From: Mayamaea pseudoterrestris
Lineage: Eukaryota
Assembly: GCA_027923505.1 (NCBI GenBank)
Contig: BROI01000002.1
Location: 1,674,001-1,738,000, forward strand
Reading direction: 5' to 3'
DNA length: 64,000 nt
Shown: positions 8,390 through 53,764 of the stretch, piece after piece
Layout of the letters: each line of letters opens with the position of its first letter
How positions within the stretch are numbered: position 1 is the stretch's first letter
Notes under the pieces: generated by a model
Databases searched by the model: none
Seen by the model: the letters and a program-made list of their open reading frames with translations, nothing else
What the model was told of the DNA's origin: nothing
Program-made: the position numbers and the translations under genes

Positions 8390-8630
8390 ACTTGTGTAAA
8401 TCGTGTACGAAATATGGTATACTACGGTTAGCATTTGATGGCAGCTAAAACAATGCGGGAGGGTACAGTACAGTACCTTGACCAGAGTATATATAGGCGA
8501 TAGTCGTAGCGGTAATGGAGTGCGGACGTCCACGCGTTCCTTTTTTCTTCTGCGAAACATCAACATGATGTGCAAAAGTAAAGACCAGGCGAGCTGCCCA
8601 TCAATTAAATTTAGATGCAAGAGCCTTGAT

Positions 8631-33800: not shown

Positions 33801-34006
33801 ATGGAGTTCAAGCGGCCAGAGAGATTCGCGAGTGGGAAAAGGAGCACCAACACCCGCCTGCTTTTATTTTAAGCTACACGGCTGACGCCACAGATCGAGC
33901 CAAGGAACTCATCATGGCGCACTCAAACGACATAATGATCAAACCACCTCCAAAGGGCTACTTGCGAAGTCTTGTGCGACGGTTGAAAGTACCAGAGAAA
34001 AGTTGA
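30839..34006 (+). CDS. DPH: diatom-type phytochrome (PAS-GAF-PHY-histidine kinase-receiver); intron 31424-31516
   Basis: N-terminal Cys in ECDREELHHIGYIQ; FPATDIP; HIIYLRNMGV; PRASF tongue; SHELRNPL, NNAIKFT, DNGCGM, GTGLGL; receiver VVDD/DYHMPG/KP; phase-0 GTAAGA...TAG intron joins the two ORFs. Confidence 0.95.
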
Positions 34007-34104: not shown

Positions 34105-37100
34105 TTATAAGATATGCACTTGCTTCCTCTTTTGCTTAGAAGCCGCAACTCGTTCCTCGGAGTTTACCCACCGGCCAATGGCTTTCAGAACCTCATCCAC
34201 AATCAGAATTGGTGCAGCCCATGCCATGACGGTGACCCAGTCATCAATTGTTAAAGGCACCATGCCGAAGCTAGCACCAAGACCTGGCAAGCCAAATCTA
34301 GAGCTGTACATGACAAACAAATGCAAAAGCACCGGCCCTGTCACTCCCGCTAGCAACCATTTGTTTTCAAGTGGCCCGACACGAAACAGGGAGTTGTCAA
34401 CTGATACTGCAGACAATGCCTTGAGCATTTCCATAGCCACCAGCGCAGAAAGTGACAAGGTTTGTGGCAACAAGCGACCCGCACCTTGAAACAGCTCGGT
34501 ACACGATGCGACGCCTTCGCCTGGCGTCCAAAACTCACCGCACTGGCTCCACGACGCCAGTTGACTTATGGAGATGCCTTGTGAAAGGTAGTGCTGCGCA
34601 AATATACCAATTGTAGCGAGACCAACGTATAACCCAGTGATGCAATACCGCGTCAACAGCCATTTCGTCATTATGGGTTCGTCGCTTGGCCGAGGAGGCT
34701 GCTCCATCAAGTCCGGTGCTGCTGGATTGAACCCAAGTGCTGTCGCGGGTGGTCCATCCGTCACAAGATTGACCCACAGCAAGTGCATTGCAGTGAGAGG
34801 CTCCGGGAAACCAGCGAGGGTCGCAAAGAAAATGGCGCAAATCTCCCCAATGTTACAGCTAATGAGGAAGCAGATAAATGCCTGCATGTTGGCGTAAATG
34901 CGCCTTCCTTCCTCAACAGCATTAACAATGGTAGAGAAATTATCGTCTGCAAGAACCATGTCTGCGGCTTCCTTGGCAACTTCGGTACCTGTAATTCCCA
35001 TGGCAATGCCCAGGTTGGCCTGCGAGAGTGCGGGCGCGTCATTCACGCCATCGCCTGTCATGGCAGTTATCTCGCCAAGCTTTTGAAGCATTTTCACTAG
35101 CTTTTGCTTGTCGGCAGGCTCAGCCCGACAAAAGACAATGTTGTCTTCCCGCAACAATGACAGCTGCTCATGCTGCGGCAAATTGAAGAATTCTCGGCCT
35201 TCGAATGCCTTGATTGGCTTGTCAGAATCTGCCGGCGGAAGGATATTCACATCGCGAGCAATGGCAACCGCTGTTGCCTTGGCGTCGCCAGTGATCATCA
35301 TGACGCGAATGCCTGCCTTGCTGCACAGATTTATGCTGGCTGCCACTTCCGGTCGGGCAGGGTCCTTTATTCCAACGACTCCTACAAGCGTCAGACCACT
35401 TTCGACGTCTCGATATGCCGATGACTTGGACAGTAAAGGATGTTTAGCAATCGCATTTTCGTCGTCACTAGGTTTCAATTTGCGCAGAGATTCCTCTAGC
35501 GTCCCAGTGTTCTTAATTGCCAGCGCGAGGCATCGCAAAGGACGCGCCGCCATGTCGGCCACCATGGCCTCAATAGATCGACGCAGTGACGGCGACATCT
35601 TGGTCACTGTTCCGTCGCGAAACTTAACATGCGTACATCGCTCTAGCAGCAGGTTTGGCGCTCCTTTCACCAGCAACTTGTTCTCAAACTTGCGCGGCTT
35701 GACACCGTCACGCATTCCAACAGGTGCATTGCCCTGCGGAAAGGCGCAAAGAACCGACATGCTCTTGCGATCACGGTTAAATTCTAGCGTAGCTATACGC
35801 GGATGCAAGTCTCTCCAAGAATTGACGTTCGCCGAAGCCAGTACACTCCGGGGAATATCGATATGCAGGCCTGTTTCATCGACTCGTCCGCTGTCGATAA
35901 ATCGTGACATGCCGCCGAGCTTCTCAACTAACACGCACAAGGCTGCCTCGGTTGGCTCGCCGACACGTTCAAACGACTTGCTGTGCTCTTCTTTCTTCTT
36001 GTTTCGATATTCCTTTTCGTGTTCATCGCTAGCAATATCCTTACCAATAATTTTGGCGTCATTGCACAAGGCGCAAACAGCCGCAATATCTGCAACCGAC
36101 CCGAGTGGGTGCTGCTCCAACTCTTTGTTGCGCGCAACACCATCAATCGTTCCCATTGGAGAATACGAAAAGCCCTCAACGAAGTGCTCTCGCACCGATT
36201 CGCGTCCTCCAGCCTTGTTTTCCCGTTCTAACAAGCCCAAACTTACAACTGTCATTTCATTGGTTGTCAAAGTCCCCGTCTTGTCCGTGCAAATGACACT
36301 TGTGCATCCAAGAGTTTCAACACTTTGCAGCTTGCGAACAATGACGTTTCGCTCGGCCATGCGTCGCGTGCCAAGGCTCAAGCAAAGCGTAATCACAGCG
36401 GGCAAGCCTTCGGGAATGGCTGCCACACCCAGCGCGACGGCAACCTTTGCGTAATAAATTCCACCCTCCCAAACGGATCGAAACGATGGATCATTCATCT
36501 TTGGAATACTTGCAATCCATACCGATAGGCAAATGACGCCAATAATTATTGTCAGTGTTTCTCCAAATTCATCAAGCTTGATTGCTAATGGCGTCTTGAC
36601 TTGCTCGGCCTGCGCCATTGTGACTCCCTTTTGAATGCGACCCATTTGTGTTTCCATGCCGGTTTGTACGACCAGCGCAACTGCCGTACCGCTCGTCACC
36701 ATTGTTCCGCTGTAACAAAAGAACACAAAACAAAAAGTGAGTCAAAGCATTACGATGCTGCTCGTCCCCTAGCTGCAAGGACGTTCCTATTCCTCCAGCA
36801 ACCTGCTCGTCTACTTACCTATACAACATGCCAGTTTGATCCTGAATGGGAGCGTCCAGCTGCTGGAGCGTTCCAGAGTCGCCCGCCAGTTTACCAACCG
36901 TCACGGACTCACCCGTCAAACTGCCCTGGTCCACCTGCAGGTTGCTACCTTGGAGTGAAACGATGCGAGCATCGGCTGGAACGCGCTGGCCGACGCGAAC
37001 GCGAATCACATCGCCTGGCACCAAGCAAGCAGCAGTGACGGATGGAGCCCCGTCTGCATTGTCATTGCCGCCATCCAATGATGTTGCCGTCCGACTCTGC

Positions 37101-37840
37101 ATCCATATTCCATCTCGCAACACTTCCACGACGGATCCACTCGCCTGCAAGTCTTGCAGCGCCTCGAGTGAATCGTTCGCCGACCGCGTCTGCCACACGC
37201 CAACGCTAGCGTTCAGTACTAAAATGGCTAGTATGACAATGGGCTCGACAAAGGCGGATAGTAGCGAGGTTGCTTCGTCGTGCGACTGCTGCATGAGCTC
37301 CACGTAGGAAAAGATTCCCGACAAGGCGGCGACTAATAACAAGATTTGAACGAGGCGGTCGTCAAACTGCCGCGCAATCAGCTTCCATATGGATGTTTTG
37401 GGTGGCTTGGACAGCGAGTTTGATCCAAAGACTGATAGTCGAGCTTGAGCTTGCTCTGTTGACAATCCAGTAGTTGGAGATGACTTGAGCAATTCCCATA
37501 GTGAATCCATGGAGATTGATCCTGCCGAAATGGACGACGAATTGTAATCGGATCGAGGGAGTAGCAAGTGTTCAGGCAACGACGAATCTAGGGAAACTTC
37601 TTCTTCTCCTGCTGCTGCTGCTGCTGCTGCTACTGAATTAGTTACTTGATTTTCTGCTGTCTTCATTCCAAGATTGCTGCCGCTGCTCCTCGCCATATCA
37701 TTCCTCTCGTGCAGGACCGTCTTGGAGACTCTCCAGGTGCGTCGGTCAAACGCCAGTCGGCGAGGAAGCGCCAAGGCTGCTGCGGGAATGAATGCCATGT
37801 AGAAACATAGTAGCAATGGAACGTAGCGTGGTTTCTGCAT
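34105..37840 (-). CDS. P2A (SERCA-type) Ca2+-transporting P-type ATPase; intron 36710-36818
   Basis: LTGES, AAIPEGLP, DKTGTLT, KGAP, MITGD, TGDGVNDAPAL, LWVNLVTDG; splice restores MLYSGTMV. Confidence 0.95.
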
Positions 37841-39097
37841 GGCTATCTTTTGTTTAGCTTGTTTGATCTGGCCTAAGACCTTTGACGAGGATATCCATGG
37901 TCGAAAAAGTGGAAAGCAACACTTGTCACGCGTTTTCGCGGTGATGGCAGGGTTGTCGTAGCGGTTATGTGTCCAACCGGTGCGACGTAAGATTTCGATT
38001 ATTTGCGGCGCGGGGTTGCACCGTAGGATTTAGGATTCATTCCAAGTCAACTTTCACCATGCAGCTAGCGTCAAAGCAGGATGAGAGAGGCGTCGCTGTT
38101 GACGGACGCGACTTCAGTCTCTAGTCTCGCAATGACGACGCTAGTCGAGAGACTGATAGCAAGCTCTCCGCATCATTCTCACCAGATGCACGAGTGCCCT
38201 TCGTCTAGTTCCGCAGCTCGTCAACCACGCATGAAAGGACGACTGCTTCAGCAAGGATGACGACAAGCAGCGAGACATGACTGCCGTCTTTGACCAAAGC
38301 ATTGGAGTTTTGACTCTGTGTCGTTTGGCTGGGACTAATGCCAGCCGGCACAGGGCACAGGACACAGGAGTAGTTGATTGTTGTAGCTTCGTTGCGAGTT
38401 GGAAGCACTGCCAATTGGACTCTGATTCCCGTTTCTGTTTCTATTGCAAGCTTTCCCCGCATTTTTATGTTACCATGAAATGTGGAAACGTCGTGTTCGT
38501 CCCCACACCACACAGCGGTTACTATGGAAGGGGTTGTCTATGTCGATTGTGTTGATGGATCTTGGAATAGTAAGTTAGAGTTTGGTCGGAACGACTCGTT
38601 ACAGAGGTGCAACCCTCACCTAAACGTCATGTTAAATGAGTGCAGGAATTACGAATTTGTATACATGGGACGACACTGTCAGCACTCAATCCTCGCCCAA
38701 ACCTGCTGTTGGCCGCAGTTATGGCAGCCTTTTGGTGCTTCACAAGGATGAAAACAAAGATGTTTACGTGTGCATCTAATGTCAAAAAGAGGCCTTTCTT
38801 TTTCGACTGGTTGTTGAGCGCCTCAGGTAGTTACTTAAAAGGAGAAGAATGATGCTACTGAGCCTTAACCTTTCCTTTTGGCAGACATTGTACAAGGCAA
38901 CACCTAATCACCATACATAATACCTTCTACTTACCTTGCTGACAGAGAAATACCACAGGTATAGAAAGTATCTTATTCCTTACTCAACGATACCGCATCT
39001 TATGTACATAAGTGCATCATGCTAATGGTTGTGCACATCAGCGTAGCTGCGCACGCAAATGTCACGCTTTATATAGAGCAGCTACTCTCATTGTGCC

Positions 39098-39216
39098 AGC
39101 AAGGACCATACAGCGCTGACAGCACCGCATCCCGTCTGCTCTGCGAAGTTAAGCAGCGCCTGGCCTGGTTAGTACTACGGTGGGGGACCACGTTGGAATC
39201 CCAGGTGTTCTTGTTT
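39098..39216 (+). rRNA. 5S rRNA gene (single copy in window)
   Basis: ~119 nt; terminal helix agcaaggac/gttcttgtt; ccatac, gcaccgcatcccgtctgctctgcgaagttaagc, ttagtact..tggg..gacc..gaa; T-run terminator downstream; TATA-like tttatata ~25-30 nt upstream. Confidence 0.9.
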
Positions 39217-39244
39217 TATTTTTATAGTAGTAAATAAATACAAT

Positions 39245-39303
39245 ACCACAATGGAATCCCAGGTGTTCCTGTTTTGTTTTTAATAGTAGTAAATAAATAC
39301 AAT
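39245..39303 (+). repeat. tandem duplicate of the 5S 3' end and terminator
   Basis: copy of 39187-39244 (accac..tggaatcccaggtgttc..tagtagtaaataaatacaat). Confidence 0.9.
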
Positions 39304-39330
39304 AGGTAGACATAATATTATATGAATATT

Positions 39331-39376
39331 ATGACATCTGCTGGGCTGGTGACAAGTTATCACCTGTCACATTGCA
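39331..39376 (-). repeat. inverted fragment of the 169-bp satellite monomer
   Basis: reverse complement tgcaatgtgacaggtgataacttgtcaccagcccagcagatg matches the dyad region of the diverged monomers (40667-40711). Confidence 0.75.
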
Positions 39377-39395
39377 AGTGATGAGGTTAAATTAC

Positions 39396-39523
39396 TGTAG
39401 TGGCAAGCACAAGAGTATTGTGCAAAGCATGTTCATCAAGAGCTGTACAGATTGTGGCCAAGGACCCTGTATCGGAGGTTTTTTGAGGTAAGACGTTGAC
39501 TGTGCAAGCATCAATGGAGTTTA
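39396..39523 (+). mobile_element. decayed LTR fragment of the same Copia family, inverted relative to the intact element
   Basis: catcaagagctgtacagattgtggccaaggaccctgtatcggaggttttttgaggtaagacgttgactg is the near-exact reverse complement of about 43541-43608; similarity extends to the LTR terminus. Confidence 0.9.
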
Positions 39524-39845
39524 AGGCCATACCACTTTTGTAGGATTCCAAGGAGTCCTTTCTGCACCATTTAAGACTTTGCACTTGTCTGTAGCACACC
39601 CTGGATTGGTTTTGCCTGACTCATTGGGTTGTTGAGTGGCCAGGGTCTGGGGTGTTTAACTGGTATGACTCCAAAACTTGCTTTGGTGGCCAATTCCACA
39701 GTGTAGGCCACACATATGGTGTAGGGCTTTACGGAAGTCCTTTTTGCACCATTTGAGACTTGGCACATGTCCATGGCAAACCCTGGATAGGTTTTGCCTG
39801 AGTCATTGGGTGGTTGTGTGACCAGGGCATGGGGTGTTTGACTGG
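39524..39845. repeat. ~182-bp satellite, about 1.8 copies (left block)
   Basis: ccctgga at 39599 and 39781; same family and strand as 53257-53586. Confidence 0.9.
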
Positions 39846-40568
39846 ACCAACCAGCTTAAATGGTGTCTCTGCGGTTGCTAGGCATGACTAAAAGATGTAA
39901 TGTGCAATCCATACAATCATATACATTTAAACCCTCCAGGAAAAATGATGGGGGTTGGGCTTAATTTGATGGTGGCTGGCAGGCAGCATGGTAATTGTCA
40001 TTGCCATCTTGATAGTAATGCTTTTGCCAGTATACAACCATGGTCCAAACAAAGACTGCGGCATAGAGACTAAAGGCCAAAACGTTCAACTAATTCAAGC
40101 GATTCAGCGTTGGCCTTTGATTGCTTTGTTGACTCCACAAGCTATGGTGGTGATGCAAACTAGTAGGAGGCGGAGCAAGCAATTGACTCCATCTGCATCA
40201 TTATCAAGTTGAATACTGTTATGGCTGTTGTCTGCATTGTCATCTAGAGCATTGCTATGCATCACAGCTGCTGGCGTCAAAAAAGGAAAGAGCAGGCATA
40301 TCCATGAAGATAAATCTGATGGAAGTGATTGCTGCTCATCCTCTTACGCATTTTCAATTTCTTGCATGGTTTCTTGAGCGTCTAGAAACTCTCATTCTTC
40401 GTGTCCTTCAGCATGAGTACTACTCATCAAGTATTTGTACCAAAATAACTCGGATCCTTCCAGATAGGAGTGCAAAAGCCATAGCCAAATCACGTCAAGC
40501 AAAATTAAACATCACCGCAACAACATATTAAAAAGTACTGCTGAGCCATGGCAGCATATTCGTGAGTT

Positions 40569-43520
40569 CATACTTGAGCCATGCGTATGCCTAAATCAAG
40601 CCAGAATGGTGCTAACATCCATATTTCAGGCGCACTACAAGATGACAAGCTAGTGTCTCCATAGACTGCAATGTGACTGGTGACAACTTGTAACCAGTCT
40701 CAGCCAGCAGATAAAGTGATTTTCAAATGCCCATACCTTGAGCCATGTGTATGCCCAAATTAAGCCAGAATGGTGCTAACATCCTTATTTCAGGTGCGCT
40801 ACAAGATGGATTGCCTGGCTGGCCCCTCAGTTTACTGCAAAGTGACTGGTGATAACTTGTCACCAGTCTCAGTCAGCAGCTGCTATGCCTTTCAATGAGC
40901 CATGTGTATGACCAATACAAGCCAGAATGATGCTTACATTTTAGTTTAAGGTGTGATACAAGATGCATTGCCTGGCTGGTGCCTCCAGGGACTACAATGT
41001 GATTGGTGACAATTTGTCACCAGACTCAGTCAGCTGATGCCTTAACATTCAAACCAGAAAGGTGCCAACATCTTTTTTTGGCTTCGCTACATGATGGTAT
41101 GCCTGGATGGTGTTTCAGGGGACTGTGATGTAATTGGTGACAACTTGTCACCAGTCTCAGCCAGCTGATGCCTTGACATTTAAACCTCCCTACACCAAGC
41201 CCTGTAGGTGACCAAATTACACCAAAATGGTGCCACCATCATTATTCAGGCTGCGCTACAAGATGGTTTGCCTGGCTGGTGTCTCAGGGGATGGCAATGT
41301 ATTTGGTGACAACTTGTCACCAGTCTCATCGCGCAATGCTGTGACATTCAAACACCCCTACAGCAGACCTTGTAGGTGCCCAAATTACACCAGAGTGGTG
41401 CCAACATCATTATTCAAGGCTGCGCTACAAAATGTTATGCCTGGCTGGTGTCTCAGGGGATGGCAATGTATTTGGTGACAACTTGTCACCAGTCTCATCC
41501 CGCACGTGCCGTGACATTCAAACGCCCCTACAGCAAGCCCTGTAGGTGCCCGAATTACACCAGAATGGTGCCAACATCATTATTCAGGCTGCGCTACAAG
41601 ATGGTATGCCTGGCTGGTGTCTCAGGGGATGGCAATGTATTTGGTGACATTTTGTCACCAGTCTCATCCCGCAATGCCGTGACATTCAAACGCCCCTACA
41701 GCAAGCCCTGTAGGTGCCCAAATTACACCAGAATGGTGCCACCATCATTATTCAGGTTGCGCTACAAGATGGTATGCCTGGCTGGTGTCTCAGGGGATGG
41801 CAATGTATTTGGTGACAACTTGTCACCAGTCTCAGCCGCACATGCCATGACATTCAAATGCCCCTACAGCAAGCCCTGTAGGTGCCCAAATTACACCAGA
41901 ATGGTGCCACCATCATTATTCAGGTTGCGCTACAAGATGGTATGCCTGGCTGGTGTCTCAGGGGATGGCAATGTATTTGGTGACAACTTGTCACCAGTCT
42001 CGTCCCGCAATGCCGTGACATTCAAACGCCTCTACAGCAAGCCCTGTAGGTGCCCGAATTACACCAGAATGGTGCCAACATCATTATTCAGGCTGCGCTA
42101 CAAGATGGTAGGCTTGGCTGGTGTCTCAGGGGATGGCAATGTATTTGGTGACAACTTGTCACCAGTCTCAGCCCACAGGTGCCGTGACATTCAAACGCCC
42201 CTACAGCAGACCTTGTAGGTGCCCAAATTACACCAGAATGGTGCCAACATTATTATTCAGGCTGCGCTACAAGATGGTATGCCTGGCTGGTGTCTCAGGG
42301 GATGGCAATGCATTTGGTGACAACTTGTCACCAGTCTCAGCCTGCACATGCCATGGCATTCAAACGCCCCTACAGCAAGCCCTGTAGGTGCCCAAATTAC
42401 ACCAGAATGGTGCCAACGTCATTATTCAGGCTGCGCTACAAGATGGTATGACAGGCTGGTGTCTCAGGGGATGGCAATGTATTTGGTGACAACTTGTCAC
42501 CAGTCGCAGCCGCACATGCCATGACATTCAAATGCTCCTACAGCAAGCCCTGTAGGTGCCCAAATTACACCAGAATGGTGCCAGCATCATTATTCAGGCT
42601 GCGCTACAAGATGGTAGGCTTGGCTGGTGTCTCAGGGGATGGCAATGTATTTGGTGACAACTTGTCACCAGTCTCAGCCCACAGGTGCCGTGACATTCAA
42701 ACGCCCCTACAGCTGACCTTGTAGGTGCCCAAATTACACCAGAATGGTGCCACCATCATTTTTCAGGCTGCGCTACAAGATGGTATACCTGGCTGGTGTC
42801 TCAGGGGATTGCAATGTATTTGGTGACAACTTGTCACCAGTCTCAGCCCGCAATGCCGTGACATTCAAACGCCTCTACAGCAGACCTTGTAGGTGCCCAA
42901 ATTACACCAGAATGGTGACAACATTATTGTTCAGGCTGCGCTACAAGGTGGTAGGCTTGGCTGGTGTCTCAGGGGATGGCAATGTATTTGGTGACAACTT
43001 GTCACTAGTCTCATCTCGCAATGCCATGACTTTCAAACGCCTCTACAGCAAGCCCTGTAGGAGCCCAAATTACACTAGAATGGTGACAACATCATTTTTC
43101 AGGCTGTACTACAAGATGGTAGGCTTGGCTGGTGTCTCAGGGGATGGTAATGCATTTGGTGACAACTTGTCACCAGTCTCAGCCCACAGGTGCCATGACA
43201 TTCAAACGCCCCTACAGCAAGCCTTGTAGGTGCCCAATTACAACAGAATGGTGCCAACATCATTATGCAGGCTGGGCTACAAGATGGTATGCCTGGCTGG
43301 TGTCTCAGGGGATGGCAATGTATTTGGTGACAACTTGTCACCAGTCTCAGCCCGCACGTGCCATGACATTCAAACGCCCCTACAGCAAGCCCTGTAGGTG
43401 CCCCAGTTACACCAGAATGGTGCCAACATCATTATTCAGGCTGCGCTACAAGATGGTAGGCTTGGCTGGTGTCTCAGGGGATGGCAATGTATTTGGTGAC
43501 AACTTGTCACCAGTCTCAGC
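40569..43520 (+). repeat. 168/169-bp tandem satellite, left arm (~18 monomers, first ~4 diverged)
   Basis: gtctcagggg at 41281, 41450, 41619, 41787, 41955, 42123, 42292, 42461, 42629, 42798, 42966, 43134, 43302, 43471. Confidence 0.98.
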
Positions 43521-43915
43521 TAACACCGTTGACGATTTCGCAGTCAACGTCTTACCTCCAAAAAGCTCCGATACAGGGTCCTTGGCCACGGTCTGTACAG
43601 CTCTTGATGGAGATGGCTCGTGGAATAGTCTTGCGCTCGCCACTACACGAATACGACTGCACTCTCGTCGCAAACTAGTAGTTCTATATTGTGAGCTTAT
43701 CGCTACATCGCTACATCGACCACTCGGAAGATCATCCGATCAATCCGTTTCTTTCAATCACATTACATCAGTCGTAACTGGTCGTTCCATTCATACAACG
43801 CATCCACACGACGGTTGCGCACTTTCTTCATTCACATGTCACATACGACAGCTGCGGACTCGACACAAGCTAATTAGGGTTCGGGCTCTTGACTTCGCCG
43901 CTCTGCGACTTGTCA
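43521..43915 (-). repeat. 3' LTR (395 bp)
   Basis: identical to 49841-50235 except 3 substitutions by my comparison. Confidence 0.97.
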
Positions 43916-46900
43916 CTCCCCTCGGGTACGCTGCTGGTCGTAGCCGCATTCTTGTCCTTCACAATCGCATACGATGTATCGCCGCGCCAAAACAATACTG
44001 GCTTGAGCAATGGCATCGCATCACAGTACGGCAGGTACTTCGTCAGTACGTCCGCAATGTTCTCCTTTCCGTCAATCTTTACAAACTTGATAATCCCCGC
44101 AGCAACTGCCCAACGGACACGATGGTAGGCCAACGCATTGTGTCGCTTGGACAATGTCGAACTCGGGATTGTAGATTGCGTAATCACTGCTTGGTTGTCT
44201 CCGTACATCCAGGCAGACTTCTCCAATGGTACGCCCATAGCCATGAGCGACGCACGTAGAGAAATGCTGATATCCGTTCCACTCTTTGCTACGCCGAATT
44301 CCGATCCAAAGGTCGCAGTCTCGACTGTAGCCTGGAGTTTGCAATGCCAGTCGACAGGCGTCTGGTTGACAAATGACAAAACTCCTTCCAATGACTTGCC
44401 TGTCACCATGCAATGCATGAGACACGCATCCTCGAAAGTTGATGTTCGTACAGTCACACCCTTTGGTGGTGGGTAGACGTCCAACATCTCATCAACTCCG
44501 TCCTTCCCGTAAACGCTGCGCTCCCAATCTTGTTCCTCCATGGTGCCAAAGTGCTCCTCGTTTGCTGGCCACTTCGTACGGAAACGGATTGCTGCGTCCG
44601 GTAACTCTCGCAAATATCCACAGACTCGCTTCACCCGCTGCAGGTGTCCCTTGCGCGGCTCCACACGGAATCGCGACAGACTCACAACTGCTACGGCAAT
44701 GTCAAATCGACCCAAAGTAATTGCCCACTGAAGTGCTCCGACTAGAGACTGGTAAATCTTCTTCTCTTGGTCGTTCAGTAGCTCGCTTTGGTCAAGTTCG
44801 GGATGATCGTCTTTGTCGATTGGTGATGAGTACTTCTTCGGAGGACCTTCAAACAAACGCTCGTACTGCGCCAAGAGTTTCGCAACGTATGTCTTGGCCG
44901 ACCAGTAAAGAGTTCCGTCAGGGTCTCGTCCAAAGTCACCGCCGAGATGATACTCGGGATGTCCAACACCTTTGAGCTTAAACTTGTACTTCTCCTCTAG
45001 CATCTTGAAGAACGCTGCTGGATCGTCTGAAATATTTAACAGATCGTCGACCCATACACAGAGGTAGTCGTAGCTGTCGCCGGCGTCCTTGATCCACAGA
45101 TCGGAATCGCAATAGGACGGTTTCCATCCTTCCGCAAGTAGGGCGTCGGCTAAGCGTTCGTGAAATCGTGCTCCGCTCGTTCGCAATCCGTACAAAGCCT
45201 TGACGATGACCAGGATGTGTCCTTCGCGCTCCCCGAACTCGGGGCCTCCAACGAAGTATACCTTCTCCTTGGTGAACGCTTCGAGATAAGCATTCCCAAT
45301 GTCACCGACCATGCACTTCTTGCCGTTCGCTTCTCCAATGACGAGAGCTAGACGCATTGCCTTCAATGAGATAACACTGGAGTAGGCATCGTCGTTGTCT
45401 TTCGTCATGTGGCCGCCTGCAACGAGACGTGCCTTGTATCGCAAATCGTGCTTGACATCGTACACAAAATGGACTCGGATCTTCTGATAACCAGTTGGTG
45501 GTGTTGTGGTGGAACTCGGACCAAGATCTTGAAACGTCTCGTACTCGTCCAGGTTCGCAAGCTCCACGCCTTCCGCATCCGTCCACTTCGTGTGCCCTGC
45601 AGCTTCCTGCAAACGTCGCGCTTCCTTCCAATCTCGGGGTACTTGGACTCCAAACTTGTAGCGCGGTCCGTTCTTTTGCTGCTCCATTCGGGCGGTCGCC
45701 ACCTTGCGCGCAACCTTCTTGGCGTTCCGGGCCCATCGGTTCAACGATGACCATCCGTCCTTGTCGAGAAGATTATGCTTTTGCGCGTAGGCTGCCACTG
45801 ATACTTTGTCGCTTTCGATCATCGCGTTGAGAGGCTCCCAAGTCTTGGATCCATCGTCCCATTGTACAAGGACGTTCCACTTGGAATGCTTCCAGTTCTT
45901 CGACTTGCTCGTCAGCGGACCCTGATGGTCTAGAATCTCCTTGAAGAACCATTTACGCTCAGGATTCGCCATGTCTTGGTTCACTTCGGCCTCGTAGAGA
46001 TCGGAAACCTCGACATAGGACATAACTTCATCCGCTTCGCCGTTACCAAGTTTCAGCATCATTTTAATGTTCTGATGGTTCTGGGCGTCGCGATTGTTCA
46101 GCTTGCTCATGACGGTCGCTCGAACTTCTTGTCCGTCGTCCGTCTTCATGAGAAACGACTTGCCGATAAGTTCATTGGGTGCATACTTCGGGAGTTTGCG
46201 CCACGGATTGATGTTCTTCTTCTTTGGCTTGTCGTTGTCGTCATTGGCAGGGTCGTCATCGGCAGGATTAGGATCTAGCTCCCCGTCGGTCATATCGTCA
46301 TCTTCCGGGTATTCCACCGTCTCGACCAAAGGGGTATCGTCTTCGTCAGGAATGAAAGAATCTTCGTCTCTGCTGTCGGTGTCGGTAATCTTCTTGATCA
46401 TTTCCGGCATAAGGATCTCGCCACCTAGACCAGGTACGGTATAGAGACGCGGCTCCCCTTCTTTCATGACGGGGGAAGCAGGTGCCGGTACGCGAAGGTT
46501 CAAAAATTTTGGGTCATTTTGGGGTAAGCAAACCGATCGCGTCATGATCTCGTGGGTCTCGCAATCACAGATGAAGTACGTCAGGTCGTCTCCGCACGTC
46601 GTGTTGGGACCAAGCCAGTACGCCGCGCGCTGGCGGGTACCCGGGGCCTCGACATCCTTGACAAAGTAGTTGACAATTTCAAACCAACAAAAATGCAAAT
46701 ACTTTGACACGTCGGGGACTTGCCCAGTGATAAACTCGATGGGAGACTTGCCGTCCAAGGCAGGATGCGACAAATGACGGTACATCTCGGTCTGGAAGAG
46801 TAAAGCGCGTAGCCAGAAGCATGCCGGAGTGCCTGTTCGGTCCATAAGCCGTTCATGACTTTCCTTGACGTGCCCAATGATGCGCTCGGCTGGGTTTTGA

Positions 46901-49743
46901 TTCTGATAGTACGGCTCCGATGTATGACGACGGCGAATCATGAACTCGCGCATTACTTCGTCAAACTCGGCACTCATCGCTTCTTTCGCATTATCCGAGA
47001 AGACTTCCAACGGAGCTCCAAACTCGCGGATGAAATCACGGAATCGTTTCGGTACGTCACCTTTCGTCCGCATGGGATACACGACAATGATCTGACTGCA
47101 ACAACCATAGAATAGCTGCACGCATGTGCACCCTGCATGTCCGTCGATATGGTCATCCATGGCAGGTTCGTCGAAGAACATGGTGTCATGGGCCACTCGA
47201 TCATCTAGACGGTAGACGTTCAGGAATCGGCTCTTTCGATGCATTCGTGGGGGGTATTGGCGCTCGTGCATGTTGAACTGCGTGCTATGGCGCAAAGTAT
47301 CCTTGATCGTCTGCGCCGGGTACCATGCAAAGTTCGGCAGCAATGCGTCGATATCAGGTTTCTTTGGCAGGATAGACTTGTAGGGCTGATAGACGAGATC
47401 CGCATTGTACTTCTGTACGACGGCACAAACATTCAGCTCCTTCTCGGTGTAAACAGGTTGATTGTCGTGTCCGAGATTCGTATAAGTCACGTTGCTTTGA
47501 CGATGGGTGCGATTCCGCGTACGCGAGCGTGTCACGCGCGTGAAGCCCTCTTCGTCGTCACTGACTTCGTCGTCTTCGTCGCGCGACAACAAGTCCGGTA
47601 CGTCGTCCTCGTCGTCATCGTCATCCGAAGAGTCATAGTCGTCGTCCTCGGTCGGCTCGACGTCAAACTCGTTCGGATCCCAAGGCCCATCGAAGGTCAT
47701 CATGACCCGAGGTAAGGTGTGAAGCTCATGCACCGACACTGGAAACATTGGCAAGGTCGCCATGCCACTTTCCATTCCGAGCATAAACTTGTATCCATCT
47801 GGCGTTTCGATTCGTAACTTGCCACCAAAGTTGTAATGCTTATCGTTGACATGAAGTCCGAAGGCTTCCATCTGCATACTCGAATGAATCGTCTTGCCGG
47901 TTCCAGAATATGCGTAATTATGGAACTCGCCGACGACCCAACCCTTGGTGCTCTTAAGCTTAGCGACTGCCGTGACGGTAGACAGGTCCGGAAGCTTGAG
48001 ACCACCGACTCCAGTGACTTCAATCTTGTGGAACTTGTCCTCGGTAAGGATGCGGCCGTCCGCTCCCCATACTCCGCCACTCGCGCCGGGATCAACAGTC
48101 GACGCTGAATGCTTATCCAAGTCAATGCTCGCGACTTTGTACTTGCGACTCTGAGCAATATTTGCTCCCCGAGTCGTAGTCGTGGGCTGGTCTGGACCTA
48201 AGAAACTTCGCATCGCTGAGCCTCGGCTAGTGTTGTTCACACGTTCGGTCGCCACACTCGCCGTCGTCGCCGCTGATGAAGTGGCTGCGACGTTCGCGTT
48301 GCGTGTTGTACTCGTCGTTTGCGTGGTGCCTGCCTGTGTTGCTGATGTCGAACCACCTGCAGCACTGGCCGCTCGACTCGTACCACGGCGTTCAAACACT
48401 TCGTGTTGCTGATCGCGGGTAAGGAGTCGCCACGTGTTTGGTGGAATCGTCGCATTCACGTCGCTGGGAATTTCGATCGTCTTCGTGTCGGCATAGCTGC
48501 GAACATACGAGCGAGTATCTCCCCGACCGCGGCCGCCGCCGCCGCCTCGTCCCGTGCTCAAGTCGCCGTGACCACCGCCCCCCTGATTGGATTGCTGATT
48601 GTTGCTGCTACTTGGCGTAGACTGGGAATTGTTCGCGCTTGCCTTCTTCGTCTTCTCCTTCTCTTTCTTGGTTTGTTCAGATTGGTTCGCCTGGCGCTTC
48701 TCGGTCTCCTTGATGCCACGACGATTGTCAGATTGACGTGCGACGTCGTTCAGGAGGTTCCAAAACTGGGTGTACGTCATCGGGTTGCCGGTCTTGGACT
48801 CTTCGATCAGCGCCATGTTCACCGCCGATGCCATATCCGCATGGCGGAAAACCGCGCGCTCCAAAATCTGACGCTTCGTGCTTGCTGTAAGTAGCTCGGT
48901 TTCCTCGGCGTAGTCATTGTAGTTCTCTTCCTTGCTGGACCACTGGATAAGCCAATTGACGAGAGACTTGGCGTAACTCGCGTCGAGAGTGAAATTGCGC
49001 CATTCGTCTTCGGCCGAACGTAGATCCAACTTGCGCGCCATCCCGTCGAGGAATGTCGCCTCCAACTCTGCAATGCACGCTGAGGCATTCGCGCTGTCGA
49101 TGTGCTTGCGGACAATGAGCTTGCTCTGCGGTGTCTTGTAGGTATACTCTACGCCGCTAAAGCTTCGAACACTGATACTGATACTCGGCGAATTCGGGCT
49201 CGAGTGCAGCTGGTGCCTTGAACTCGTCGTCCCAAAAGTAGCCAAGTCGCTTCGCATGCGGTTCTTGAAGGCCCGCCAGTAGGAGCAGAACTTGCGATCG
49301 TTCTTGAGCTCCAGCATGGTCTTCAGATCCAGCTTGATGTCGTGTCGTTTCGTCGTGGTGTCGTTGCCTCCGATAACGCTGAAGTCTCCGAAACTGCGGT
49401 TGCCTGCGGTCGGTGACCCCGGTGCTGCTGGGAGGTCTCGGCTCGTAATGTGGTCTTTCTCCAGGTCTTGCCATTGCGCAGTCGTCCGACGTTGCTCGTG
49501 AATCCAACTCATGAGCTTGCGCAATCGGCTTGTTCGTATCGTCGACCACTGGTGCTGGGTCTTAATGTTCGTCACGTCTTGTTCCGACAGCTCGGCCATC
49601 GCCTCCGCAGTCGTGAGTTCCTCTTGCTCGAAACACACTGCGGTAGGGTCGTTTGGATCCCAAGTTGCGGATGCTGCGAGCCACGGAATGTCGAAGACTT
49701 TACCGACGGCACGCTTGTAGGTCGTTACATCAATTGTCGCCAT
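43870..49743 (-). CDS. Gag-Pol polyprotein: gag, aspartic protease, integrase, chromodomain, reverse transcriptase, RNase H
   Basis: VDPGASGG (PR); HDTMFF/SDNAKE/QNPAER (IN); EILDH..LVQWDDGSKTWEP (chromo); YKARLVAGG, GDIGNAYL, KALYGL, WVDD (RT); TFGSEF, GDNQAV, NIADVLTK (RH). Confidence 0.96.
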   Translation of the reverse strand: MATIDVTTYKRAVGKVFDIPWLAASATWDPNDPTAVCFEQEELTTAEAMAELSEQDVTNIKTQHQWSTIRTSRLRKLMSWIHEQRRTTAQWQDLEKDHITSRDLPAAPGSPTAGNRSFGDFSVIGGNDTTTKRHDIKLDLKTMLELKNDRKFCSYWRAFKNRMRSDLATFGTTSSRHQLHSSPNSPSISISVRSFSGVEYTYKTPQSKLIVRKHIDSANASACIAELEATFLDGMARKLDLRSAEDEWRNFTLDASYAKSLVNWLIQWSSKEENYNDYAEETELLTASTKRQILERAVFRHADMASAVNMALIEESKTGNPMTYTQFWNLLNDVARQSDNRRGIKETEKRQANQSEQTKKEKEKTKKASANNSQSTPSSSNNQQSNQGGGGHGDLSTGRGGGGGRGRGDTRSYVRSYADTKTIEIPSDVNATIPPNTWRLLTRDQQHEVFERRGTSRAASAAGGSTSATQAGTTQTTSTTRNANVAATSSAATTASVATERVNNTSRGSAMRSFLGPDQPTTTTRGANIAQSRKYKVASIDLDKHSASTVDPGASGGVWGADGRILTEDKFHKIEVTGVGGLKLPDLSTVTAVAKLKSTKGWVVGEFHNYAYSGTGKTIHSSMQMEAFGLHVNDKHYNFGGKLRIETPDGYKFMLGMESGMATLPMFPVSVHELHTLPRVMMTFDGPWDPNEFDVEPTEDDDYDSSDDDDDEDDVPDLLSRDEDDEVSDDEEGFTRVTRSRTRNRTHRQSNVTYTNLGHDNQPVYTEKELNVCAVVQKYNADLVYQPYKSILPKKPDIDALLPNFAWYPAQTIKDTLRHSTQFNMHERQYPPRMHRKSRFLNVYRLDDRVAHDTMFFDEPAMDDHIDGHAGCTCVQLFYGCCSQIIVVYPMRTKGDVPKRFRDFIREFGAPLEVFSDNAKEAMSAEFDEVMREFMIRRRHTSEPYYQNQNPAERIIGHVKESHERLMDRTGTPACFWLRALLFQTEMYRHLSHPALDGKSPIEFITGQVPDVSKYLHFCWFEIVNYFVKDVEAPGTRQRAAYWLGPNTTCGDDLTYFICDCETHEIMTRSVCLPQNDPKFLNLRVPAPASPVMKEGEPRLYTVPGLGGEILMPEMIKKITDTDSRDEDSFIPDEDDTPLVETVEYPEDDDMTDGELDPNPADDDPANDDNDKPKKKNINPWRKLPKYAPNELIGKSFLMKTDDGQEVRATVMSKLNNRDAQNHQNIKMMLKLGNGEADEVMSYVEVSDLYEAEVNQDMANPERKWFFKEILDHQGPLTSKSKNWKHSKWNVLVQWDDGSKTWEPLNAMIESDKVSVAAYAQKHNLLDKDGWSSLNRWARNAKKVARKVATARMEQQKNGPRYKFGVQVPRDWKEARRLQEAAGHTKWTDAEGVELANLDEYETFQDLGPSSTTTPPTGYQKIRVHFVYDVKHDLRYKARLVAGGHMTKDNDDAYSSVISLKAMRLALVIGEANGKKCMVGDIGNAYLEAFTKEKVYFVGGPEFGEREGHILVIVKALYGLRTSGARFHERLADALLAEGWKPSYCDSDLWIKDAGDSYDYLCVWVDDLLNISDDPAAFFKMLEEKYKFKLKGVGHPEYHLGGDFGRDPDGTLYWSAKTYVAKLLAQYERLFEGPPKKYSSPIDKDDHPELDQSELLNDQEKKIYQSLVGALQWAITLGRFDIAVAVVSLSRFRVEPRKGHLQRVKRVCGYLRELPDAAIRFRTKWPANEEHFGTMEEQDWERSVYGKDGVDEMLDVYPPPKGVTVRTSTFEDACLMHCMVTGKSLEGVLSFVNQTPVDWHCKLQATVETATFGSEFGVAKSGTDISISLRASLMAMGVPLEKSAWMYGDNQAVITQSTIPSSTLSKRHNALAYHRVRWAVAAGIIKFVKIDGKENIADVLTKYLPYCDAMPLLKPVLFWRGDTSYAIVKDKNAATTSSVPEGSDKSQSGEVKSPNPN

Positions 49744-49840
49744 GGTGGAGGTTGATCAGAGGAATCGGACTCGCTGCAGACGAATGTGTCACGATAGCTC
49801 CCTCGCTCGTTCTTGCTCTCGAAGCACTGAAATGTTAATC

Positions 49841-50235
49841 TAACACCGTTGACAATTTCGCAGTCAACGTCTTACCTCCAAAAAGCTCCGATACAGGGTC
49901 CTTGGCCACGGTCTGTACAGCTCTTGATGGAGATGGCTCGTGGAATAGTCTTGCGCTCGCCACTACATGAATACGACTGCACTCTCGTCGCAAACTAGTA
50001 GTTCTATATTGTGAGCTTATCGCTACATCGCTACATCGACCACTCGGAAGATCATCCGATCAATCCGTTTCTTTCAATCACATTACATCAGTCGTAACTG
50101 GTCGTTCCATTCATACAACGCATCCACACGACGGTTGCGCACTTTCTTCATTCACATGTCACATACGACAGCTGAGGACTCGACACAAGCTAATTAGGGT
50201 TCGGGCTCTTGACTTCGCCGCTCTGCGACTTGTCA
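49841..50235 (-). repeat. 5' LTR (395 bp)
   Basis: direct repeat of 43521-43915. Confidence 0.97.
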
Positions 50236-53200
50236 TCAGCCCGCACGTGCCATGACATTCAAACGCCCCTACAGCAAGCCCTGTAGGTGCCCAAATTACA
50301 CCAGAATGGTGCCAACATCATTGTTTAGGCTGCGCTACAAGATGGTATGCCTGGCTGGTGTCTCAGGGAATGGCAATGTATTTGGTGACAACTTATCACC
50401 AGTCTCAGCCCGCAAGTGCCATGACATTCTAACGCCCCTACAGCAAGCCCTGTAGGTGCCCAAATTACACCAGAATGGTGCCAACATCATTAATCAGGCT
50501 GCGCTACAAGATGGTATACCTGGCTGGTGTCTCAGGGGATGGCAATGCATTTCGTGACAACTTGTCACCAGTCTCAGCCTGCACGTGCCATGACATTCAA
50601 ACGCCCCTACAGCAAGCCCTGTAGGTGCCCAAATTACACCAGAATGGTGCCAACATCATTATTCAGGCTGCGCTACAAGATGGTATGCCTGGCTGGTGTC
50701 TCAGGGGATGGCAATGTATTTGGTGACAACTTGTCACCAGTCTCAGCCAGCACATGCCATGACATTCAAACGCCCCTACAGCAAGCCCTGTAGGTGCCCA
50801 AATTACACCAGAATGGTGCCACCATCATTATTCAGGTTGCGCTACAAGATGGTATGCCTGGCTGGTGTCTCAGGGGATGGCAATGTATTTGGTGACAACT
50901 TGTCACCAGTCTCATCCCGCAATGCCGTGACATTCAAATGCCTCTACAGCAAGCCCTGTAGGTGCCCAAATTACACCAGAATGGTGACAACATCATTATT
51001 CAGGCTGCGCTACAAGATGGTATGCCTGGCTGGTGTCTCAGGGGATGGCAATGCATTTGGTGACAACTTGTCACCAGTCTCAGCCGCACATGCCATGACA
51101 TTCAAATGCCCCTACAGCAAGCCCTGTAGGTGCCCAAATTACACCAGAATGGTGCCAACATCATTATTCAGGTTGCGCTACAAGATGGTATGCCTGGCTG
51201 GTGTCTCAGGGGATGGCAATGTATTTGGTGACAACTTGTCACCAGTCTCAGCTGCACATGCCATGACATTCAAATGCCCCTACAGCAAGCCCTGTAGGTG
51301 CCCAAATTTCACCAGAATGGTGCCAACATCATTATTCAGGCTGCGCTACAAGATGGTATGCCTGGCTGGTGGCTCAGGGGATGGCAATGTATTTGGTGAC
51401 AACTTGTCACCAGTCTCAGCCAGCACATGCCATGACATTCAAATGCCCCTACAGCAAGCCCTGTAGGTGCCCAAATTTCACCAGAATGGTGCCAACATCA
51501 TTATTCAGGCTGCGCTACAAGATGGTATGCCTGGCTGGTGGCTCAGGGGATGGCAATGTATTTGGTGACAACTTGTCACCAGTCTCAGCCAGCACATGCC
51601 ATGACATTCAAACGCCCCTACAGCAAGCCCTGTAGGTGCCCAAATTACACCAGAATGGTGCCACCATCATTATTCAGGTTGCGCTACAAGATGGTATGCC
51701 TGGCTGGTGTCTCAGGGGATGGCAATGTATTTGGTGACAACTTGTCACCAGTCTCATCCCGCAATGCCGTGACATTCAAACGCCTCTACAGCAAGCCCTG
51801 TAGGTGCCCAAATTTCACCAGAATGGTGCCAACATCATTATTCAGGCTGCGCTACAAGATGGTATGCCTGGCTGGTGGCTCAGGGGATGGCAATGTATTT
51901 GGTGACAACTTGTCACCAGTCTCAGCCAGCACATGCCATGACATTCAAACGCCCCTACAGCAAGCCCTGTAGGTGCCCAAATTACACCAGAATGGTGCCT
52001 ACTTCATTATTTAGGCTGAGCTACAAGATGGTATGCCTGGCTGGTGTCTCAGGGGATGGCAATGTATGTGGTGACAACTTGTCACCAGTCTCAGCCCACA
52101 CATGCCATGACATTCAAACGCCCCTACAGCAAGCCCTGTAGGTGCCCAAATTACTCCAGAATGGTGCCAACATCATGATTTAGGCTGCGCTACAAGATGG
52201 TATACCTGGCTGGTGTCTCAGGGAATGGCAATGTATTTGGTGACAACTTGTCACCAGTCTCAGCCCACAGATGCCATGACATTCAAACGCCCCTACATCA
52301 GGCCCTGTAGGTGCCCGAATTCCACCAGAATGGTACCAACATCATTTTTCAGGTTGCGCTACAAGATGGTAGGCTTGGCTGGTGTCTCAGGGGACTGCAA
52401 TGTGATTGGTGACAACTTGTCACCAGCCTCAGCCAGCTCAACCTTGACATTCAAACGCCCCTACAGCAAGCCATGTATACACCCAAATTACACGAGAAAG
52501 GCCTTAACATCATTGTTTGGGCTGCGCTACAAGATGGTATGCCTGGCTGGTGTCTCAGGGGACTGCTATGTGATTGGTGACAACTTGTCACCTGTCTCAG
52601 CCAGCTGATGCCTTGACATTCAAACGCCCCTACAGCAAGCCCTGTATATACCCAAATTACACCAGAATGGTGCCAACATCATTATTCAGGCTGCACTATA
52701 AGATGGTAGGCTTGGCTGGTGTACCAGGGGATGGCAATGTAATTGGTGACAACTTGTCACCAGTCTCAGCCCGCATATGCCGTGATATTCAAACGCACCT
52801 ACAGCAAGCCCTGTAGGTGCCCAAATTACACCAGAATGGTGGCAACATCATTATTCAGGCTGCGCTACAAGATGGTAGGCTTGGCTGGTGTCTCAGGGGA
52901 TGGCAATGTATTTGGTGACAACTTGTCACCAGTCTCAGCCAGCACATGCCATGACATTCAAACGCCCCTATAGCAAGCCCTGTAGGTGCCTAAATTACTC
53001 CAGAATGTTGCCAACATCATTATTTGGGCTGCGCTACAAGATGGTTGGCTTGGCTGGTGTCTCAGGGGATGGCAATGTATTTGGTGACAACTTGTCACCA
53101 GTCTCAGACCGCAGATGCCGTGACATTCAAATGCACCATACAGCAAGCCCTGTAGGTGCCCAAATTACTCCAGAATGGTGCCAACATTATTATTCAGGCT

Positions 53201-53247
53201 GCGCTACAAGATGGTTTGTCTGGCTGGTGTCTAAGGGGACTGCAATG
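50236..53247 (+). repeat. 168/169-bp tandem satellite, right arm (~18 monomers)
   Basis: the monomer resumes in register after the TSD; more diverged copies toward 52300-52800 and the end. Confidence 0.98.
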
Positions 53248-53256
53248 AGATGTGTC

Positions 53257-53586
53257 GTTGAGTGGCCATGGCATGGGGCATTTGACTGGTATGAATCCAA
53301 AACGTGGCCATTCCCACAGTGTAGGCCATACCAATGGTGTAGTGCTTCCAGGCAGTCCGTTTTGCACCATTTATGACTTTGCACATGTCTACGGCACACC
53401 CTGGACAGGTTTTGCCCGACTCATTGGGTGGTTGAGTGGCCTGGGCATGGGGCATTTGACTGGTATGAATCCAAAACTGCCGGAGGTTGCCATTCCCACA
53501 GTGTAGACCATACCAATGTTGTAGGGCTTCCAGGCAGTCCTTTTTGCACCTATTGAGACTTTGCACATGTCCATGGCACGCCGTGG
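53257..53586. repeat. ~182-bp satellite, about 1.8 copies (right block)
   Basis: cattcccacagtgtag at 53309 and 53491; aligns with 39524-39845. Confidence 0.9.
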
Positions 53587-53764
53587 ACATGCAGCTACGC
53601 GTACGACGTACCGGTACAGCGCTAAAAAAATGTCGCGGCAAGTAACGATGCGACTCGAATCTTTAGCTTTCCATGCATGCGTTCGACTGGCTCGCAACGA
53701 TGTGGTCATCTGCCGCTTTGCTTCAGTCGTTTCAGTTTTCCCTCCTTTTCGTAATCATAACATA

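Follow-up and report, generated by a model that had tools for sequence, protein, structure and literature searches.

Background

Isolated CG-methylated repeat islands have been described for the diatoms Phaeodactylum tricornutum, Thalassiosira pseudonana and Fragilariopsis cylindrus, and that account reports many methylated repeat islands in diatoms, with more than 1,500 hypo-methylated regions in DNMT5 mutants of P. tricornutum and, in the same species, young CoDi elements among the targets of methylation (PMC9998398). In diatom Copia retrotransposons of the CoDi-A clade, the C-terminal end of the integrase bears a putative chromodomain (Llorens et al. 2009, PMC2774666), and chromodomains are reported to steer integration to heterochromatin (Gao et al. 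2008, as cited within PMC11541908). Here we analyse a stretch of 64,000 nucleotides (the window) of the diatom Mayamaea pseudoterrestris (assembly GCA_027923505.1, contig BROI01000002.1, forward strand positions 1,674,001 to 1,738,000), in which a block of satellite DNA and other old repeats holds a young Ty1/Copia long terminal repeat (LTR) retrotransposon. We think that this block is probably an isolated, long-methylated repeat island of the diatom type, and a landing site for a chromodomain Copia.

The centromeres mapped in P. tricornutum have less than 33 % GC over at least 500 bp and no repeats or shared motif (10.1101/096016); a first-pass annotation of this DNA had described them as short, low in GC and lacking a shared satellite. 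Those predicted in Fistulifera solaris have 36-42 % GC and are described there as being without highly repeated elements (10.1101/2021.11.10.468027). Further afield, plant satellite centromeres with CRM elements combine nucleosome-sized repeats, a homogeneous core with diverged edges and a chromodomain LTR element inside, and in a brown alga, Ectocarpus, the putative centromeres are marked by ECR-1, a chromodomain LTR element (PMC11541908). A literature search of incomplete coverage turned up no report of a nuclear satellite or of a satellite centromere in a diatom.

Results and discussion

CpG depletion confined to a repeat island

All results concern this single window and this single locus. 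The parts of the island are listed in Table 1. Leaving aside the Copia and the 5S gene at the left border, their observed/expected CpG ratios (CpG o/e) lie between 0.05 and 0.43, against 0.71-1.48 elsewhere in the window. Taken per kilobase, CpG o/e runs from 0.18 to 0.34 where a 1-kb window falls wholly inside the island (six windows, 39001-43000 and 51001-53000), and is 0.54-0.76 in the three that straddle a border and 0.75-1.40 in every other kilobase, and TpG and CpA stand at 1.4-1.85 in the island compared with ~1.0-1.5 elsewhere. Both borders, at 39.2 kb and 53.5 kb, are sharp to within ~200 bp: on the left, 200-bp windows fall from 0.74 at 39100 to 0.0 at 39200, and on the right they rise from 0.35 at 53400 to 1.28 at 53500. 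The footprint expected of CpG methylation is thereby found in the island only.

Table 1 Parts of the repeat island and of its resident Copia element, in window positions. TRF, Tandem Repeats Finder; ORF, open reading frame
Feature	Positions	Strand	Evidence	CpG o/e
Full-length 5S ribosomal RNA (rRNA) gene, then T-run	39098-39216	+	Rfam RF00001 at 101.1 bits against a gathering score of 38, covering model positions 1-120 of 120	0.72
58-bp tandem duplication (2 copies) of 5S 3′ end and AT-rich tail	39187-39304	+	TRF period 58, 2.0 copies, 91 %	
Isolated satellite monomer fragment (palindrome region), inverted, 33 bp	39344-39376	-	Inverted repeats I3-I25, 83-94 % complementary to monomers; BLAST 87-94 %	
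Decayed LTR fragment, same Copia family, 131 bp	39391-39521	+	LTR positions 263-394 of 396; 82-86 % identity to both LTRs	
Left relic of 182-bp family, ~1.8 units	39524-39845	+	Internal repeat 39554-39663 / 39736-39845 at 85 %	0.05
Spacer, non-repetitive, non-coding, CpG-poor, 731 bp, 42 % GC	39846-40576		No Pfam family above cut-off	0.43
Left edge of array, three diverged, shortened (~157 bp) monomers	40577-41052	+	TRF 40739-41034, period 157; BLAST with core monomer as query, 73-79 %, extends to 40577	0.12
Left arm of 168/169-bp satellite array	41053-43519	+	TRF 41053-43520, period 168, 14.7 copies, 91 % matches; monomer identity matrix	0.29
Target-site duplication TCAG	43516-43519 and 50236-50239		TCAGC if LTR is one base shorter	
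Young, apparently autonomous Ty1/Copia retrotransposon, 6,716 bp	43520-50235	-	LTRs 43520-43915 and 49840-50235, 396 bp, 99.24 % identical	1.26-1.38 (LTRs 1.29-1.38, interior 1.26)
Single gag-pol ORF, 1957 amino acids, no internal stop	43870-49743	-	Pfam RVT_2, E 8.7e-21	
Predicted chromo-like domain at integrase C-terminus	45763-45969	-	Polyprotein residues ~1259-1327; AlphaFold (AF2) model and structural neighbours	
Right arm of same satellite array	50236-53247	+	TRF 50236-53247, period 169, 17.8 copies, 92 % matches; matrix	0.24
Right relic of 182-bp family, ~1.9 units, abutting a Yip1-domain gene	53251-53589	+	TRF 53257-53589, period 182, 1.9 copies, 86 %	0.35
Intergenic gaps outside the island (16)			Pooled CpG o/e 1.09; 16 of 16 at or above 0.71	0.71-1.48

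The changes within the repeats point the same way. The consensus of the satellite monomer holds 3 CpG where 10.95 would be expected, and a count no higher than this arose in only 12 of 20,000 shuffles. Among the monomers, variants by transition amount to 6 allele-states at 6 CpG positions against 51 at the 162 other positions, making them about three times commoner per site at CpG, and where the consensus reads TpG or CpA a minority of monomers still carries CpG (8 and 10 of them, for example). A decayed LTR fragment near the left border differs from the young LTR by C>T or G>A at 7 of 20 CpG-site positions and by any transition at 5 of the 111 others. The simplest reading of the pattern, judged from base composition and substitutions, is that it would be the footprint of long-term cytosine (CG) methylation, and the simplest reading of the Copia, which has a high CpG o/e, is that it is too recent to show decay. 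Of the two possibilities raised in the first-pass annotation, a heterochromatin island or a centromere, the first thus gains indirect support from the CpG depletion, the sharp borders, the excess of TpG and CpA and the bias of transitions towards CpG.

The same composition might have arisen neutrally, if slippage and unequal crossing-over had built an array in a long intergenic gap, its low CpG being that of the founding sequence, and if the Copia had landed there by chance and survived because it does no harm. A sample of two insertions from a single window is small, a genome as dense as this one would purge those that hit genes, and the CpG count of an array comes close to one observation. 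On the other side, CpG loss with an excess of TpG and CpA is shared by four unrelated components, namely the 182-bp family, the spacer, the old LTR fragment and the monomer, and because the loss extends to sequence that has no relation to the monomer it is no founder effect of one unit. A neutral origin also sits poorly with the halt of the depletion within 200 bp at both borders, with the C>T and G>A losses of the old LTR fragment relative to its young relative, with the location of the differences between the young LTRs (see below) and with the uniformly higher CpG o/e of the 16 intergenic gaps outside the island. We regard this explanation as unlikely.

One satellite array interrupted by a young Copia

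The array as a whole spans 40577-53247 and is split by the Copia. A 25-nt motif from the monomer has 34 matches at up to 2 mismatches, all of them within 40679-53107 and spaced by 168/169 bp (shuffle mean 0 in 100 shuffles), which agrees with the ~35 monomers counted at first pass. The array consists of head-to-tail, contiguous copies of one non-coding unit, as is characteristic of satellite DNA. Two long ORFs inside it, of 280 amino acids (41376-42218) and 256 amino acids (50696-51466), are spurious; 168 is a multiple of 3, so that a frame stays open from one monomer to the next, and none of the ORFs of the array and of the spacer scores above the cut-off of a Pfam family.

The monomers closest to the consensus are those in the middle and right-centre of the array, and identity falls towards both ends. 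It reaches 94-99 % in monomers L04-L10 and L14-R12 (L and R denoting the two arms), 90-93 % in L02-L03 and in an internal dip at L11-L13, 83-92 % in R13-R15 and 67-74 % in the two end monomers. A homogeneous core with diverged edges, as proposed earlier, is therefore broadly present apart from the dip. Such a gradient is expected of tandem arrays in general and so provides no pointer to a centromere. The most homogeneous monomers lie in the right arm, where R04 is identical to R09 and R07 to R08. These identities are local and no long higher-order repeat was seen: although the sequence of 169- and 168-bp lengths agrees between the arms at 13 of 15 positions, duplication of one arm from the other, or a long higher-order repeat, was rejected, as mean identity is flat at 89-93 % for every monomer offset from -8 to +8 and variant sites do not align. 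The Copia had also been placed almost exactly midway in the array. This holds if the 157-bp variants are counted (arms of 2943 and 3012 bp) and fails by the limits of TRF (2467 and 3012 bp); the exact midpoint rests on a soft left boundary and carries no weight.

The best conserved part of the monomer is a perfect 8+8-bp palindrome, GGTGACAA-C-TTGTCACC (for example in 51395-51419). Variant cells number 9 in the 25-column window around it where the mean is ~36, and 126 of 5000 permutations were as extreme. The diverged 157-bp variants and the inverted fragment at 39344-39376 preserve the palindrome too, and the insertion point of the Copia lies 10 bp past it. The palindrome could be a site at which a protein binds. 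As a single strand, the monomer does not fold unusually overall (z-score -1.12, with 31 of 200 shuffles folding equally well). A derivation of the satellite from 5S rRNA, transfer RNA (tRNA) or another known RNA was rejected as well, the only Rfam match being the 5S gene itself, with no tRNA and no BLAST similarity; no resemblance to the 5S gene or to a family in Rfam was seen for the monomer or for the 182-bp unit. Derivation from the Copia fares no better, since neither unit has similarity to the element or to its LTR. In scans of metagenomes a 25-mer of the monomer gave 0 matches and the Copia protein 41 pattern matches, none of which was confirmed.

The Copia lies inside this array and is young, as had been proposed, with nearly identical LTRs, a target-site duplication and an intact frame (Table 1). 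The left flank of the element ends in ...GTCACCAGTCTCAG and the right flank begins with TCAGCCCGCAC; removal of the element together with one copy of the duplication makes the monomer read through exactly, as ...CCAGTCTCAG/CCCGCAC (the slash marking the junction), in agreement with the consensus. The spacing of monomer starts across the insertion, 6889, equals 6716 + 4 + 169. Monomer phase is continuous across the Copia, and we conclude that one array of ~5.95 kb was interrupted with a 4-bp (or 5-bp) duplication. The polyprotein carries, in order, a protease-like DPGA motif (residue 550), an integrase with DDE-like residues (852-950), the chromo-like module and the reverse transcriptase (1416-1627); the protease-like and DDE-like names are our own reading of motifs, as Pfam detects only the reverse transcriptase and leaves the integrase family rve undetected. 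Integrase ahead of reverse transcriptase is the Ty1/Copia order and, together with paired LTRs, target-site duplication and an intact gag-pol frame with an RVT_2-type reverse transcriptase, is what an autonomous Ty1/Copia element presents.

All three differences between the young LTRs (positions 15, 129 and 336) are at CpG sites, and two of them are CpG transitions. These sites hint that the new Copia may already have become methylated.

A modelled chromo-like fold at the integrase C-terminus

Between integrase and reverse transcriptase the polyprotein has a module reading W-F-F-K-E-I-L ... W-N-V-L-V-Q-W-D-D-G-S-K-T-W-E-P-L, which is common to the nine relatives found. An AlphaFold model built from 10 aligned sequences has a mean predicted local distance difference test score (pLDDT) of 76.5, rising to 83-90 over the chromo-like part. 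In searches for structural neighbours with VIA-align, all 50 among the matches listed are chromo or chromoshadow proteins, with Z scores of 5.6-7.1, and the HP1 chromodomain (1kna_A) is superposed at Z 5.9 with a root-mean-square deviation of 1.6 Å over 49 residues. With Foldseek, 30 of the 44 among the matches listed are chromo or chromoshadow proteins, the best having an E value of 0.045 and none reaching 0.001. The integrase C-terminus is thus modelled as a chromo-like fold. Sequence searches for a chromodomain returned only weak, spurious matches to NKG2-D. The name chromodomain Copia, given to the element at first pass, is accordingly borne out by the modelled fold and by the CoDi-A literature and is not borne out by sequence profiles.

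A chromodomain Copia is in itself an already known kind of element, as published for CoDi-A. The element described here shares with CoDi-A a diatom host, integrase before reverse transcriptase, a modelled chromo-like module placed right behind the integrase core, one long ORF and a short target-site duplication; it differs in that its domain is undetected by the Pfam Chromo family, and the likeness is one of domain layout (PMC2774666). It also resembles ECR-1 of Ectocarpus in having a stramenopile host, a length close to the ~6.6 kb of ECR-1, a single ORF, a 4-bp target-site duplication, a (here predicted) fusion of integrase and chromodomain and residence in gene-poor repeat regions. Unlike the Copia, ECR-1 is a Ty3/Gypsy element and keeps all three residues of the aromatic cage, and it has been shown genome-wide to be confined to one region on each chromosome, whereas the Copia is known from one window (PMC11541908).

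A mosaic left border and relics of older repeats

A mosaic that the first-pass annotation had not resolved makes up the left part of the island. Going inwards, it consists of the 5S rRNA gene, the duplicated 5S end, an inverted piece of monomer, the LTR fragment, a relic of the 182-bp family and the spacer (Table 1). The 5S gene stands at the border of the CpG-poor island and starts exactly at the coordinate at which the block was first said to begin. The two copies of the duplication are 90 % identical where 39187-39216 is compared with 39245-39274 (BLAST). The 5S gene retains its CpGs (CpG o/e 0.72), and the adjoining 58-bp duplicated copy of its 3′ end has zero. That a gene transcribed by RNA polymerase III might act as a chromatin boundary here is an idea only.

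The LTR fragment is oriented opposite to the resident Copia. It is the relic of an earlier insertion, so that the island has been hit at least twice. The spacer gave no Rfam match and no relic of Copia coding sequence. Relics of the 182-bp family are present on both flanks of the island, as had been noted, at 39524-39845 and 53251-53589; they are 81-82 % alike between sides and ~85 % alike within each side. Simple insertion of the whole block into an array of 182-bp units was rejected, because the two relics, read from their coordinates, are out of phase with each other. Terminal inverted or direct repeats bounding the array or the island were looked for and none were found.

Such a mosaic raises the question of whether a mobile element has dispersed the satellite, or gave birth to it, in which case many small arrays would occur per chromosome and the locus would be one ordinary copy without a chromosomal role. 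The island is made of relics, and the isolated piece of inverted monomer, 1.2 kb away from the array, means that parts of the monomer have moved; plant satellites, moreover, often arise from tandem repeats within LTR retrotransposons (PMC7004042). Yet the array has no terminal inverted or direct repeats, the 182-bp relics on its two sides are out of continuous phase by our coordinate reading, the monomer and the 182-bp unit lack similarity to the Copia or its LTR, and the other 49 kb of the window contain no second array or LTR. A dispersed repeat is in our estimation quite unlikely.

A methylated repeat island as the probable explanation

The long-methylated repeat island, which we favour as the probable explanation, would have arisen in the following way. 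Old repeats, comprising the 5.95-kb array, the 182-bp relics, the old LTR fragment and the spacer (~7.7 kb without the Copia), would form an island within a gene-dense diatom chromosome arm and would long have been kept as CpG-methylated, silent chromatin. Methylated cytosines would have deaminated, so that CpG decayed to TpG and CpA across the island, with the flanking genes and the 5S gene keeping theirs. The array may have grown and been homogenised by unequal exchange, leaving a uniform middle and diverged edges. An earlier member of the same Copia family would have landed ~4 kb to the left before the resident element arrived; the latter, a Ty1/Copia of the CoDi-A kind, would then have inserted in one monomer with a duplication of 4-5 bp and have barely changed since. 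The repeated hits would probably be explained by a chromo-like domain that directs integration to repressive chromatin, together with the harmlessness of insertions here to genes. The anatomy of the island, the unbroken phase of the array, the target-site duplication, the CpG footprint and the modelled chromo-like fold are shown by the data, and from them we infer methylation at the present day, heterochromatin marks and targeted integration.

The published islands of P. tricornutum, of T. pseudonana and also of F. cylindrus are among the closest matches. Like them, the locus is a discrete island of repeats and Copia in gene-dense surroundings with a methylation footprint; unlike them, its bulk is a nucleosome-sized satellite array and not the bodies of transposable elements, its putative methylation is read from a footprint in the sequence, and the species is another one (PMC9998398).

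Several observations weigh against this explanation or against parts of it. CpG depletion is a historical footprint and as such no proof of the present methylation state, as far as sequence can tell. The array consists of many copies of one unit, by which its CpG count comes close to a single observation, and independent support for the depletion comes from only ~1.9 kb of other island sequence. The two Copia insertions could reflect tolerance, in the sense of no selection against them, and not targeting. For the chromo-like domain, the best structural Z score of 7.1 is below the caution line of 8 of the tool, and no chromodomain was found by Pfam (with the whole protein or with the excised piece), by phmmer against PDB or by a profile of 7 sequences against PDB. 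By our reading of the motif, only two of the three positions of the presumed aromatic cage would be aromatic.

Comparison with centromeres

The array, or the whole island, could alternatively be the centromere of the chromosome, of a small satellite type and with a centromere-targeting chromodomain retrotransposon in the manner of plant CRM elements. The monomer is nucleosome-sized, the array is layered with its youngest material central, a chromodomain-bearing LTR element lies inside the array with a second hit nearby, the best conserved palindrome of the monomer is a possible protein-binding site, and the DNA of lowest GC in the window is in the island. The role of ECR-1 as a marker of putative centromeres in Ectocarpus would fit as well (PMC11541908).

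Base composition tells against a centromere of the Phaeodactylum type. The lowest GC over 100 bp in the 64-kb window is 25-29 %, at 39201-39261 in the region of the 58-bp duplication, and the lowest over 500 bp is 40 %, at 39201. In the arrays GC amounts to 50 %. Just 2 of the 100-bp windows in the island reach 32 % GC or less; there are at most 2 such windows per 3 kb, and 20-23 kb of the same window has no fewer. A run of at least 500 bp below 33 % GC, as in Phaeodactylum, is absent with this minimum of 40 %, and in place of the repeat-free DNA without shared motifs of that species the island is dominated by a tandem array. The locus does resemble the centromeres of P. tricornutum and F. solaris in being intergenic in a gene-dense pennate genome, and its lowest GC of 36-42 % over 0.3-0.7 kb is within the range of the candidates of F. 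solaris; unlike it, the centromeres of both are described as having no shared repeats (10.1101/096016; 10.1101/2021.11.10.468027).

Size and context tell against it too. The array measures only ~6 kb, compared with tens of kilobases to megabases for the satellite centromeres with CRM elements in plants, and the resident element is Ty1/Copia where theirs is Ty3/Gypsy (PMC11541908). Arrays of ~170 bp also occur in the euchromatic arms of other organisms (PMC4675708), and with methylated repeat islands as numerous as they are in diatoms (PMC9998398) the prior for any one of them to be a centromere is low. The indirect evidence leans against a centromere, which we rate as very unlikely. The boldest version, in which this would be the first satellite-based regional centromere in a diatom, with 168/169-bp monomers bearing a 17-bp palindrome, a 5S boundary and a homing chromodomain Copia, is highly doubtful to us as well.

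Gene surroundings

No host ORF of at least 200 amino acids occurs between 37840 and 53567. Outside the block there are 25 ORFs of at least 200 amino acids, and Pfam families were found in 11 of the 12 tested. The description of the block as free of genes in otherwise gene-dense DNA thus holds for protein-coding ORFs of this size and is contradicted by the complete 5S rRNA gene at its left end.

On the left the island is faced by the start of a gene for a SERCA-type Ca2+-ATPase at 34105-37840, which is composed of two ORFs (34105-36702 and 36815-37840) that are presumably split by an intron. Its product shares 75 % identity with the P. tricornutum protein and 70 % with the one from Seminavis robusta, and a JGI protein is the closest match at 80 %. 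A phytochrome-type sensor kinase of 788 amino acids with GAF, PHY, HisKA, HATPase_c and response-regulator domains is encoded at 31640-34006, 5 kb to the left of the island. The ORF at 8565-10727 (720 amino acids) has no Pfam family at E ≤ 0.001 and is the sole one without a match among the 12 flanking ORFs tested.

Conclusions

The methylation footprint, the mosaic left border with its 5S gene, the second Copia hit and the modelled chromo-like fold of the integrase C-terminus are additions to what the first-pass annotation had recorded. The island and its Copia belong to known kinds and are of modest interest unless CENH3 is present on the array; were the locus a centromere, diatom centromeres would not all be short, low in GC and free of repeats, with consequences for how artificial chromosomes for diatoms are designed. 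Satellite DNA of diatoms seems to be hardly described, and the locus offers a clean and datable example of how a repeat island is assembled, with CpG-decayed old repeats, a sharp border at a 5S gene and repeated capture of a Copia family with a modelled chromo-like domain in its integrase. It also provides a test case for the proposal, apparently without a demonstration in the literature, that the chromodomains of CoDi-A elements direct integration to silent chromatin.

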